DNA of 8,335 nt. Origin: a virus. Taxonomy: Duplodnaviria > Heunggongvirae > Uroviricota > Caudoviricetes. Location: IMG/VR virus record IMGVR_UViG_2880361019_000005, positions 1-8,335 of that record; one strand, written 5' to 3'. The position numbers and the translations under genes were made by a program. Numbering within the stretch: the stretch's first letter is position 1; each line of letters begins with the position of its first letter. Below the pieces are notes generated by a model. That model worked only from the letters and a program-made list of their open reading frames with translations, did not search any database and was not told where the DNA came from. Below are positions 3,270-5,807 of the stretch, one piece after another.

Positions 3270-4745
3270 TCAGCTGATACTGATCCCTGCCGTGGATTTT
3301 TTCATGACCACAACCAGTAAATCACTGATGTACGTTGTCGGCGTCCAGTTGTACGCACCGGCCGACGACACATTAAACGTCAGGGTGACATGACCCCGCC
3401 CTGCCGGCATATCTATCACCGATGAGAACACCCGGCTGACATCCGTTGCCGGTTCATGGAAAATCTCAACCCCGTTCTTCAGCACCTGCAGCTTACAGGT
3501 GGAATACCAGTACGACTGCTGATTCGGGCTGTTGAAATCCTGGTGTTTCGTCCCGCGAAACACCACCGGGGGAATGATAATCTGCCGGTCGAAGCCCTGG
3601 TCATCGTAAACTGTGACGGTTACCGTCCCGCTGGCATAACTGTTATTCCGGGGAAAGGCTTTCCCCACCGTCTTCACCAGGTCGCCTTCAATCTGGTTTG
3701 CAGACAGTTTCCCTCTGATGACACAGTTCTCGTTAATGGTGACATTATTGAGCGTGCCGGTATTCGCGGTAATTGCTCCGCTGATATCCGCGTTCCTGGC
3801 TGTCAGCTTCCCTTCCGGCGTCAGGGAAAACGTCGGGGGGTTGCCGGATGACGTGATACTCGCCGCAAACAGACGCTTCAGGAACACGTCGTTCATGAAC
3901 AGCTGATTCCCCTGCGCCACAAATAACGGAGTGCTGTTGCCGCTCTCCGGATTTATCATCGCGATACGGTCAGCCAGCAGCAGTATGTTGCTCAGTGGCT
4001 GGCCATCAGTATCCTCAATCCCTGCACCAATCCCGGCCACATAGGGAATGCCGTCTTTCGTTTTTTGAACCTTCAGCATGTACAGCGCAGCCAGGTCATC
4101 ATTTGTGTCCTTCTGCACGCGCTGTATCTGCTGTATGGTGGCGCTCTGGTTCTCCAGTGTTTTACTGACCGTCTGTGTGATTTCATTGCGGGTTTCCGTG
4201 ATGCTGGTCTTCATCTCCGCCATCTCATCTGCAAGCTGGCTGTTATCTATCAGTTCCCACACCCCTGAGCCAGATGCAGTTTTCCTATTTTTTTCCGGAA
4301 AAATTCCAGATACCCTTCACCATCATTGCTGGGCTGCCCGCTGACTTCCACAAACGCAGATTTCCCCACCAGGTTGACGCTGCGCACGTAAAACCAGAAA
4401 TCCGTCCCCGGCTTAATCCGGCTTCCCTGGACAGTCCACTGACTGCCGCTCCCCAGATAACGGGCAGATTTTTCCACCTGTGCCGTGTTCGTGATGCGTT
4501 TTTCCGAAAACCAGAACTCAAACTGCACCGTCGGGTCATACATCGCCAGCACCGGTACCGCCGTTATCTGAAAATACCCCGGCGTCAGTTCAATGGTGGC
4601 GGGTTTTGCTGGCGCGTTAATCCGGAAGGTGGTGGTGGCCGGTTCGCCCTGCTGGCCATAACTGTTAATTGCCCTGACTGTCAGGGTGTATTCCCCGAGC
4701 GGCAGACCACCGAAACGATGCTCTGTATCCGCAGTGATGGCGGTG
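3270..4745 (-). pseudogene. J: 3' fragment of lambda J-like host specificity (tail tip/central fibre) gene; 5' end replaced by IS1 and frameshifted in an A7 run (T7 on + at 4288..4294)
   Basis: Two collinear ORF pieces on the minus strand (4250..4745 and 3270..4262) in different frames. The upstream piece has FN3-like sequence ([39 protein letters not shown]...); the downstream piece ends ...[22 protein letters not shown], directly upstream of lom as in lambdoid phages. One extra A in the run would fuse them as ...[24 protein letters not shown].... The coding frame runs straight into the IS1 end at 4746, with no start codon or upstream J sequence. Confidence 0.75.
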
Positions 4746-4760
4746 GGTAATGACTCCAAC

Positions 4761-5264
4761 TTATTGATAGTGTTTTATGTTCAGATAATGCCCGATGACT
4801 TTGTCATGCAGCTCCACCGATTTTGAGAACGACAGCGACTTCCGTCCCAGCCGTGCCAGGTGCTGCCTCAGATTCAGGTTATGCCGCTCAATTCGCTGCG
4901 TATATCGCTTGCTGATTACGTGCTGCTTTCCCTTCAGGCGGGATTCATACAGCGGCCAGCCATCCGTCATCCATATCACCACGTCAAAGGGTGACAGCAG
5001 GCTCATAAGACGCCCCAGCGTCGCCATCGTGCGTTCACCGAATACGTGCGCAACAACCGTCTTCCGGAGCCTGTCATACGCGTAAAACAGCCAGCGCTGG
5101 CGCGATTTAGCCCCGACATAGCCCCACTGTTCGTCCATTTCCGCGCAGACGATGACGCCACTGCCCGGCTGTATGCGCGAGGTTACCGACTGCGGCCTGA
5201 GTTTTTTAAGTGACGTAAAATCGTGTTGAGGCCAACGCCCATAATGCGGGCTGTTGCCCGGCAT
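4761..5264 (-). CDS. insB: IS1 insB reading frame (expressed as InsAB' fusion transposase by -1 frameshifting)
   Basis: Translation ...[43 protein letters not shown]...[13 protein letters not shown]... matches IS1 InsB. It overlaps insA in the -1 frame. Confidence 0.93.
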
Positions 5265-5458
5265 CCAACGCCATTCATGGCCATATCAATGATTTTCTGG
5301 TGCGTACCGGGTTGAGAAGCGGTGTAAGTGAACTGCAGTTGCCATGTTTTACGGCAGTGAGAGCAGAGATAGCGCTGATGTCCGGCGGTGCTTTTGCCGT
5401 TACGCACCACCCCGTCAGTAGCTGAACAGGAGGGACAGCTGATAGAAACAGAAGCCAC
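5183..5458 (-). CDS. insA: IS1 InsA (transposition inhibitor and N-terminal part of the InsAB' transposase)
   Basis: Protein [43 protein letters not shown]... (zinc-finger CxxC...CxxC) is the canonical IS1 InsA. GTG start at 5458..5456, TAA at 5185..5183. Confidence 0.95.
5201..5209 (-). other. IS1 programmed -1 ribosomal frameshift site (TTAAAAAAC, A6C motif)
   Basis: Minus-strand TTAAAAAAC (gttttttaa on +) in the insA/insB overlap; this is the slippery heptamer known for IS1. Confidence 0.85.
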
Positions 5459-5807
5459 TGGAGCACCTCAAAAACACCATCATACACTAAATCAGTAAGT
5501 TGGCAGCATCACCAGATTTTCCAGATCCTGATATTAAATCCTGCCCAAATAAATGGGCATCACGCAAAATATACAGATTTGCTGGAGTTATTGAGTAATG
5601 AGAGTTAGCCAAGAGGTGAGATAATATCCATCTATGGCACAGAACTAAACATAATCTGACTATATGCTCTGTGCCAAAAACAGATGTTATATCATGTATT
5701 GTATGCTCATCCTGCAAAATATAAATTCCGCAGATACCCCTTACCTCTGAATATTAATCCACAATGGATGCGACAAAAAAGATTTTAAGTTGGCATCAGG
5801 CGAAATA

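Follow-up and report, generated by a model that had tools for sequence, protein, structure and literature searches.

Defective or 'grounded' prophages, such as CP4-57, Rac and e14 of K-12, have lost genes for excision, replication and the virion and have kept the integrase, the att sites and accessory or virulence cargo, and IS629-driven prophage decay is a further example from O157. Adjacent deletions and inter-IS recombination belong to classical IS1 genetics, and such a deletion yields no reciprocal product. Both processes are established causes of IS copies without target duplications (PMC11708052). The IS deletions of the E. coli long-term evolution experiment left a lone intact IS at a novel joint, again without a duplication, and their flanks were collinear, in the same orientation and tens of kilobases apart in the intact relative (PMC11708052). 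As to the site concerned here, prfC is a documented integration site of long-tailed lambdoid Stx1a and Stx2c phages, and tandem integration at this gene has been proposed for E. coli CC119 (PMC10132054).

The stretch of DNA analysed here (8,335 nucleotides, the window) is identical to part of Escherichia albertii 2010C-3449 (CP034212.1), and it makes up nearly all of what is left, 9.7 kb, of one lambdoid prophage with effector cargo at the 5' end of prfC. The remnant does not differ in principle from other defective prophages, and the agent of its decay, IS1, is still at the scar. The locus is an ordinary case in which a mobile element has led to the decay of a prophage; two unrelated elements have not been joined here.

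The remnant and its site in prfC

Apart from IS1, the features of the window are as follows.

1 to 651, plus strand: nleG-family type III effector gene, 216 aa, intact (Pfam T3SS_NleG, E 5e-48)
936 to 2522, minus strand: stf, side tail fibre gene, pseudogene (Pfam phage_tail_N, Collagen and Phage_fiber_C on separate ORFs)
2657 to 3202, minus strand: lom (Ail/Lom outer-membrane protein), 181 aa (Pfam Ail_Lom, 1-161 of 199 profile positions)
3270 to 4745, minus strand: 3' remnant of the tail-tip gene J (Pfam Ig_J, Ig_J_second, Phage_Tail_Tip, Ig_GpJ_C)
4759 to 4250, minus strand: chimeric IS1/J ORF, 169 aa, with a TTG start inside the IS1 end (Ig_J and Ig_J_second domains)
5514 to 5598, plus strand: 3' remnant of the phage excisionase gene xis, last 27 codons, DFPDPDIKSCPNKWASRKIYRFAGVIE and stop (coding 5515-5598)
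5808 to 6941, minus strand: 'orphan' gene, 377 aa, 32% GC (phrog_7779, E 1e-246)
7100 to 8335, minus strand: prfC-specific tyrosine integrase, 411 aa, intact (Pfam Arm-DNA-bind_3, Phage_int_M, Phage_integrase)

In CP034212.1 the order between prfC and yjjG is attR-dinI-nleG-stf-lom-'J-IS1-'xis-orphan-int-attL. The chromosome around the remnant (deoA...osmY-prfC on one side, yjjG-rimI-holD-rsmC on the other) is syntenic with K-12, in which prfC directly neighbours yjjG. Both att sites are kept just outside the window as a 42-nt direct repeat, the copies being 9,687 bp apart (8879-8920 and 18566-18607 of the chromosomal locus L005), and attL lies 231 nt past the window end with the start codon of int toward it. 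The repeat corresponds to codons 8-22 of K-12 prfC, that is, to its 5' coding end, and the identical core is the first 14 nt, GGGTGAGAAATAAT. The attR copy bears a prfC 5' end supplied by the phage, and the reconstituted N-terminus reads MTSLLAAEVAKRR... compared with MTLSPYLQEVAKRR... in K-12. An integrase gene by attL, an att repeat in the 5' region of prfC and a phage-borne prfC 5' end characterize the lambdoid prophages that integrate at prfC, and we found all three.

A preliminary description of the window had held that the original boundaries were probably lost, and had pointed to a tRNA att site beyond position 8335 and to a missing att repeat. The repeat was indeed found, in both copies, and the boundaries turned out to be in place. 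A tRNA att site was rejected: L005 contains no tRNA and att is inside prfC. The closest tRNA genes, all three of them tRNA-Leu, lie some 3 kb beyond attL, past the four genes yjjG, rimI, holD and rsmC, and the mark of a tRNA-linked genomic island, an integrase beside a tRNA or tmRNA with att derived from its 3' end, is absent.

At the attR-proximal end of the remnant, the cargo gene nleG has 99.6% nucleotide identity to nleG7 of E. coli O145/01_3327. An exact look-up of its protein returned 24 contigs with only two distinct contexts, and the drafts among them stop at IS1. Compared with intact prfC prophages, about three quarters of the genome is gone and three of the late genes that remain are pseudogenes. 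stf is broken into several ORFs by a 1-bp deletion near 1959 (as judged by indels against the relative L008), lom is shortened by a 2-bp deletion near 2699 (207 aa in relatives), and the J remnant carries a further frameshift, a 1-bp deletion at about 4262. Sequencing error as the source of these frameshifts was rejected, since an independent draft assembly, L006, carries the same sequence. With no phage genes left besides int, lom, stf, nleG, dinI, the phrog_7779 gene and the truncated xis' and J', the element is not a functional prophage.

On the integrase side, xis is interrupted by IS1 after nucleotide 110 of 195, and its first 36 codons and part of codon 37 are gone. The intact 64-aa ORF is present in the relatives L001 (11891-12085) and L002 (7890-8084) and matches the excisionase family phrog_1553 (E 2e-35). 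To judge from its sequence, the 'orphan' is a conserved phage gene of the function-unassigned family phrog_7779, located between int and xis; phage PhiR63_1 has it as well, as do 62 E. coli genomes, and its product has no significant Pfam or PADLOC match. It is not the gene of a separate islet, as had been supposed. The right flank of IS1 had been described as AT-rich and non-coding. The first part stood, with 36% GC over 5514-5807 compared with 54% in J and 32% in the orphan gene, and the second did not hold throughout, as 5515-5598 is the 3' end of xis.

An IS1 copy without a target duplication

The IS1 copy and its ends comprise the following.

4737 to 4745: left flank 9-mer ATGGCGGTG, J sequence, without a repeat at the right
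4746 to 5513, minus strand: complete IS1A-like IS1, 768 bp (Pfam Zn_ribbon_InsA, HTH_Tnp_IS1, DDE_Tnp_IS1)
4746 to 4768: IRR; the left end reads GGTAATGACTCC...
5264 to 4761, minus strand: insB', 167 aa, intact
5458 to 5183, minus strand: insA, 91 aa, intact
5491 to 5513: IRL; the right end reads ...GGCAGCATCACC
5514 to 5522: right flank 9-mer AGATTTTCC, xis sequence, without a repeat at the left

Members of the IS1 family are about 768 bp long and have imperfect terminal inverted repeats of about 23 bp (GGTGATGCTGCCAACTTACTGAT / GGTAATGACTCCAACTTATTGAT), and the window copy has both properties, with 18 of the 23 outermost positions matching between its ends. Since IRR is at the left end and IRL at the right, the element is on the minus strand. 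Its frameshift motif, TTAAAAAAC, is intact, an A6C-type -1 frameshift joining insA and insB'. Over its full length it could be aligned with five further IS1 copies (90.6-99.3% identity), and its identity to the three IS1A copies in locus L004 is 99.35%.

A simple IS1 insertion creates a target duplication of 8-9 bp, and the window IS1 has none. The mismatch of the two flanking 9-mers, noted before, was confirmed, and no k-mer of at least 5 nt is common to the 25 nt on either side of the element, so that a shifted duplication or one of 8-14 bp is also excluded. Of five control IS1 copies from E. coli loci, subjected to the same boundary calling, four had duplications (9, 9, 9 and 8 bp) and one had none. 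A target duplication is a property of the insertion event and not of the element, and the window element is still IS1; without the duplication, the present joint is not a simple insertion.

The left junction also behaved as first described: a J-homologous frame on the minus strand is open through it into the IS1 terminus. For the proteins encoded by the chimeric IS1/J ORF and the J fragment, CP034212.1 was the only record with an exact match. Furthermore, L006 matched over 14,739 bp, gap-free and with a single mismatch, and its contig ends 6 bp short of IS1, which fits a real repeat junction at that point. One complete assembly spans the entire IS1.

Intact relatives and the two breakpoints

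We compared the locus with intact relatives. The prophage of E. coli ExPEC XM (about 43 kb) occupies the same site, with att in the prfC 5' end and a phage-borne replacement prfC 5' end as in the window element, and has the order int-orphan-xis ... J-lom-stf-cargo-dinI. Phage PhiR63_1 has the same gene order from int to dinI, with lom annotated in XM and not in PhiR63_1. The integrases of the prfC-integrating Stx1a/Stx2c phages of E. coli CC119 match the window int at 93.6%. The window element differs from the E. coli prfC prophages in its host, E. albertii, and in its cargo, which is nleG instead of stx or cdt (cdtABC in XM).

The int arm is 99.93% identical to that of the XM prophage at the nucleotide level and 99.9% identical to that of PhiR63_1, and the first 616 nt of the attR arm, including the prfC-specific part, are 95.6% identical to XM. 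The right arm thus belongs to the same kind of prfC lambdoid phage, and the earlier view of it as unrelated island DNA has to be given up. The J-lom-stf-nleG-dinI arm is closest to E. coli prophage arms beside a dusA-linked integrase (96-99% identity), whereas the J and tail-fibre region is only about 86-89% identical to its XM counterpart. Because of this closeness to dusA-linked arms, arms may have been exchanged among lambdoid prophages, or a tandem pair may formerly have stood at prfC.

Both breakpoints could be placed to the base. The J remnant (1,476 nt in the window) corresponds to the final 1,477 nt of a J gene 3,477 nt long, and its alignment to the intact J of L008 stops at L008 11708/11709, nucleotide 2000 of J, in agreement with the proposal that the 5' part of J had been removed. 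The right breakpoint is between L001 12000 and 12001, inside the 64-aa excisionase ORF, where the intact sequence reads ...ACAGGCC followed by AGATTTTCC. The two flanks map, in their native orientation, to separated positions of one continuous intact relative, as expected of a deletion joint. Estimated from the coordinates, the breakpoints are separated by about 31.8 kb in the ExPEC XM prophage and by about 36.8 kb in PhiR63_1. These comparisons, which the preliminary description had recommended, support its proposal of an IS1-associated deletion, adjacent or inter-IS1; what was lost is the interior of one prophage between cognate arms that keep their att sites, instead of DNA lying between a prophage and an integrase islet.

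Megablast searches with the whole window and with junction-centred queries returned no record of either IS1 junction in 5,426 complete E. coli genomes. In the same genomes there was no J/xis joint without IS1, a finding that, like a duplicated target, would have spoken against an IS1-made joint. Two hits, H24 and H25, seemed collinear through IS1 and were rejected as artefacts of piece joining, in which IS1 is on the far side of the tail-fibre genes. An exact-pattern scan of IMG/VR for both observed junctions and both predicted intermediates (IS1 with a duplication in xis or in J) gave none, and a scan of JGI metagenomes for the right junction and the xis intermediate gave none either. IS1 with a duplication at either site was absent from the 5,426 complete E. 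coli genomes and IMG/VR.

How the interior may have been lost

Our preferred explanation, held with moderate confidence, is that one lambdoid prophage in prfC lost its interior by an IS1 adjacent deletion. We infer both the order of events and a one-copy rather than a two-copy mechanism. IS1 would first have inserted into the prophage, in xis or in J. One IS1 end would then have attacked a second site in the same prophage and DNA molecule (intramolecular replicative transposition, or 'adjacent deletion'), and removal of the DNA between the sites would have left a single IS1 without a target duplication. The loss of about 32-37 kb would include the first 110 nt of xis, the recombination, immunity, replication, Q, lysis, terminase, head and tail genes, and nucleotides 1-2,000 of J; int, the phrog_7779 gene, IS1 and J'-lom-stf-nleG-dinI would have been retained between attL and attR. 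J, lom and stf would have acquired their frameshifts in a later step. With xis cut short and the replication functions and virion genes gone, the remnant would be unable to leave its site. As in the long-term evolution experiment, a lone intact IS is at a novel joint; the present locus differs in coming from a natural isolate without a time series, and the step of IS1 with its duplication was not observed.

It is possible, although less probable, that the same deletion in the same prophage arose by RecA-dependent homologous recombination between two IS1 copies that had inserted independently, with equal orientation, into J and xis. Each insertion would have had its own 9-bp duplication, and the surviving IS1 would keep one half from each; the resulting sequence would not differ from the product of an adjacent deletion. 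Recombination between IS copies has been documented as a source of copies that lack duplications (PMC11708052), and IS1 does pile up in lambdoid arms: in L004, two copies beside a tail-fibre gene are separated by about 260 bp (1,025 bp between their starts). However, three events are needed where adjacent deletion needs two, and IS1 was at neither site in the genomes searched (5,426 complete E. coli and IMG/VR, with JGI for xis). In addition, the five differences of the window IS1 from IS1A are scattered over positions 179-507 without a mosaic pattern, which is a weak test of two-copy recombination. Since no intermediate was found, adjacent deletion is preferred on parsimony only.

We regard it as unlikely that related prophages were in tandem at prfC and that an IS1-associated deletion spanned the hybrid att, so that the int and J arms came from different phages. 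The affinity of the J-nleG-dinI arm to arms beside dusA-adjacent integrases rather than to XM would suit such an origin, as would the tandem integration proposed in E. coli CC119 (PMC10132054). Yet the attR-proximal 200 nt are of the prfC type, common to XM, and must match the integrase specificity; lambdoid mosaicism alone accounts for the divergent late arm, and a third att copy has left no trace at the locus.

Also quite improbable, in our judgement, is that the remnant is a selected minimal cassette, or alternatively that IS1 did not cause the deletion and came in through a break while it took place. On the cassette reading, the deletion would have been fixed for immobilising nleG, dinI, the phage prfC promoter and 5' end, and the phrog_7779 gene, with lethal lytic functions removed. 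The phrog_7779 gene, at the int-xis moron position, would then be a possible defence or exclusion gene.

There is very little to be said for the view that IS1 fused a truncated prophage with an AT-rich integrase island that was linked to a tRNA and unrelated to it, with the boundaries of both lost: the jump from 54% GC in J to 32-36% in the right flank and orphan gene, and the lack of a Pfam match for the latter, would fit it, but the right arm (xis of phrog_1553, phrog_7779 and int) is phage DNA, seen as the left end of PhiR63_1 and of prfC prophages that are intact, attL and attR have both survived, no tRNA is at the site and the chromosomal flanks are syntenic. Just as hard to credit are a deletion made first by a double-strand break or illegitimate recombination, with IS1 captured without a duplication, and a joint that is an assembly artefact: de novo IS copies without duplications have been reported at the centre of deletions, a proposal unproven in that report itself and not made for IS1 (PMC11708052), and one complete assembly only spans the whole IS1, but long reads trivially span a 768-bp repeat, the independent draft contig stops at the same J position and the prfC-to-yjjG synteny fits a simple deletion.

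For annotation, the locus should be treated as a single defective prophage in prfC of E. albertii 2010C-3449, with attL and attR mapped and an internal IS1-bounded deletion, and not as the fusion of a prophage fragment with an integrase island. Once IS1 had removed xis and the lytic genes, the type III effector gene nleG would have been fixed as a trait of the chromosome. Finally, the int-xis arm is 99.9% identical between E. coli and E. albertii compared with 91-96% for the chromosomal flanks, which shows recent transfer of this arm between the two species.

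A single insertion within prfC

An exact look-up with the NleG protein sequence led to the chromosome CP034212.1 (GCA_003864075.1), which the window matched at all 8,335 bases; this genome is listed as Escherichia albertii 2010C-3449 (human, 2010, ST5390) in a table of PMC10673567. Chromosomal flank identity was 98.9-99.4% to the E. albertii type strain versus only 91-96% to E. coli, which is consistent with that assignment and accounts for the limited coverage among 5,426 complete E. coli genomes, at most 66% of the window. Gene order across locus L005 (the window with 10 kb on each side) is deoA-deoC-yjjI-yjjW-yjjV-yjjU-ytjA-osmY-prfC, dinI-nleG-stf-lom-J'-IS1-orphan-int, yjjG-rimI-holD-rsmC, where J' is a truncated J. 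Because prfC and yjjG are adjacent in K-12, all DNA between them in L005 is one insertion. Alignment to the K-12 empty site revealed 42 nt, equal to prfC codons 8-22, at both element ends.

L005 8879-8920: attR, copy of the 42-nt repeat
L005 18566-18607: attL, copy of the 42-nt repeat
L005 8879-8940 and 18566-18630: att regions close to the window's ends but beyond them, at about -1121 to -1060 and 8566-8630 in its numbering

The first 14 nt of the two copies (GGGTGAGAAATAAT) are identical, and an independent repeat finder also recovered the pair, with a spacing of 9,687 bp. The attR copy runs on into a phage-borne replacement prfC 5' end, the rebuilt gene starting MTSLLAAEVAKRR..., and the native 5' end, 22 codons long, persists as a stub at attL. 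By integrating within the coding region, the phage brings in a new prfC start and promoter. In E. coli, RefSeq annotates the equivalent stub as a partial hypothetical protein. The preliminary description had called for a search for a tRNA/att site beyond position 8335 and for the missing att repeat, and had considered the element boundaries probably lost; both att copies are present, flanked by yjjG and prfC. Nor is the att site a tRNA, as it had suggested: no tRNA was found at the integration site, the closest being three tRNA-Leu ~3 kb away, past four genes.

Phage arms on either side of IS1

In 62 E. coli genomes, window 5514-8335 is present in full (100% coverage) at 99.9% identity, and it forms the left end of the 48-kb lambdoid phage genome PhiR63_1 (PV340573.1), ordered int - 377-aa gene - ... 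cI/cro - O - Q - lysis - terminase - head - tail - J - stf - ... - dinI. It is also 99.93% identical to the arm at which the ~43-kb prophage of E. coli ExPEC XM begins; that prophage lies between yjjG and prfC with an identical att structure and terminates J-lom-stf-cdtABC-dinI, then prfC. The integrases of Stx1a and Stx2c phages, which PMC10132054 reports as integrated at prfC, match the window's integrase at 93.6%.

Window 5808-6941, minus strand: orphan gene, 377 aa, 32% GC, phrog_7779

The orphan gene matched phrog_7779 (E 1e-246), a phage family of unknown function, and had no Pfam or PADLOC match. Its position between int and xis is constant in this phage group, moron-like; the RefSeq version is shorter (342 aa). 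These matches contradict the earlier view of the right flank as unrelated island DNA. The flank is AT-rich, as described, but not simply non-coding, since 5515-5598 encodes the 3' end of an excisionase, with a short spacer after it. E. albertii and E. coli share the int-xis arm at 99.9% identity, compared with 91% (prfC side, L005 1-8900) and 96% (yjjG side, L005 18336-20651) for the chromosomal flanks, which implies that the phage moved recently between the two species. The uneven flank divergence possibly reflects a recombination tract on the yjjG side.

At the attR end, the first 616 nt are common to XM (95.6% identity) and cover the prfC-specific segment, which must match the integrase. 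The best matches of the late arm (96-99%) are the arms of E. coli O145, O157 and other prophages that sit beside a dusA-linked integrase. In E. coli O145:H28 RM12581 and strain 01_3327 (4000-13700 of each locus), a dinI-nleG7-espS-stf-lom-J arm of 96-99% identity is the direct neighbour of a dusA-adjacent tyrosine integrase, an arrangement seen in many EHEC genomes; thus, near-identical late/cargo arms go with different integration modules. The int-dinI adjacency in these two loci is odd. XM and PhiR63_1 each carry an int arm and a J-to-dinI arm in one genome, and on these alignments the two IS1 flanks are the opposite arms of a single type of phage.

The IS1 junction and the deletion

Window 4746-5513, minus strand: complete 768-bp IS1
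Window 4250-4759, minus strand: chimeric ORF, 169 aa, with a TTG start (4759) within the IS1 terminal repeat, continuing into J'

One IS1 terminus, GGTAATGACTCC..., adjoins J and the opposite one, ...GGCAGCATCACC, adjoins the right flank. The element encodes InsA (Zn_ribbon_InsA, HTH_Tnp_IS1) and InsB' (DDE_Tnp_IS1), contains the frameshift site TTAAAAAAC, and shows only 5 differences from three IS1A copies of E. coli OkiPb01684. No target duplication was found: the outside 9-mers, ATGGCGGTG (J side) and AGATTTTCC (right side), are unlike, and 0 common 5-mers occurred within 25 nt of both ends. The same boundary-calling procedure, applied to five IS1 copies from E. coli loci, returned duplications in four (9, 9, 9 and 8 bp) and none in one, indicating that the absence is real rather than a boundary error. 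We thus confirmed the missing duplication, and likewise that a J frame (minus strand; Ig_J, Ig_J_second) crosses the left joint into the IS1 terminus. An exact-sequence look-up returned the chimeric IS1/J' ORF from the window's own genome alone.

The breakpoints were placed using intact relatives. On the left, the match with the intact J of E. coli 01_3327 (3,477 nt) ends at nt 2000, so that, as first described, the 5' part of J (2,000 nt) is missing and 1,477 nt are left. On the right, relatives read ...ACAGGCC then AGATTTTCC..., between positions 12000 and 12001 of L001, an E. coli locus with intact xis. This point falls within a 64-aa ORF (L001 11891-12085) matching the phrog_1553 excisionase over its full length (E 2e-35; labelled DNA-binding protein by RefSeq in E. 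coli MMC-J-0091), the last 27 residues of which are exactly encoded by window 5515-5598. From coordinates, the missing interval is estimated at ~31.8 kb on XM and ~36.8 kb on PhiR63_1. Since each arm retains its native orientation, the event was a deletion rather than an inversion. The locus very probably records an internal deletion, bounded by IS1, in a prophage residing at prfC.

Two textbook processes leave a single intact IS1, lacking a duplication, between distant collinear sites: intramolecular IS1 transposition (adjacent deletion) and homologous recombination between two IS1 copies in direct orientation. PMC11708052 names both as frequent causes of missing duplications. The preliminary description had named these two processes, and its deletion reading is supported. 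Both routes end in the same sequence and can be told apart only by intermediates in relatives; searches of E. coli genomes, IMG/VR and JGI metagenomes yielded none. Because adjacent deletion needs two events rather than three, we lean towards it as the cause: IS1 would have transposed within the prophage, with loss of the interval between the sites. Recombination between two copies, which costs the third event, is a less likely route. A former tandem prophage pair at prfC is improbable; it would fit the similarity of the late arm to dusA-linked arms, but ordinary lambdoid mosaicism explains this equally well.

Prophage decay and other IS1 insertions

Judging from established lambda biology, an element that has a truncated xis and has lost all its replication, lysis and virion genes presumably cannot excise efficiently or propagate. 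Further lesions were found relative to the E. coli 01_3327 arm.

Window ~816: 955-bp deletion, espS and tail-assembly remnant lost
Window ~1959: 1-bp deletion, frameshift in stf
Window ~2699: 2-bp deletion, frameshift in lom
Window ~4262: 1-bp deletion, frameshift in J

An independent draft assembly (14,739 bp matched, one mismatch, no gaps; contig stopping 6 bp short of IS1) carries all of them, indicating real decay rather than sequencing error. The frameshifts probably followed the deletion or were roughly contemporaneous with it. The int, phrog_7779, nleG and dinI genes are still intact. The locus, in a genome already published, is a routine case of prophage decay driven by an IS and is of value mainly for annotation.

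Two further IS1 copies were observed in E. coli.

L002 (MMC-J-0091) 8313-9080: independent IS1 of divergent type (90.9% identical), between xis and the phrog_7779 gene
L003 (O39:NM F8704-2) 10001-10768: IS1 in a prophage at argW

The first has a normal 9-bp duplication, TAATACCCC, and lies ~300 bp from the position of the window's right junction in an otherwise intact prfC prophage; IS1 has therefore targeted this AT-rich int-xis region more than once. The second adjoins a lambdoid tail-fibre arm, is bordered by GAGAGGCCTTTA and GAGATTGTTTTG and so lacks a target duplication, and is probably another IS1-associated rearrangement; its neighbours are an OspG-family effector gene on one side and a tail-fibre C-terminal gene on the other.
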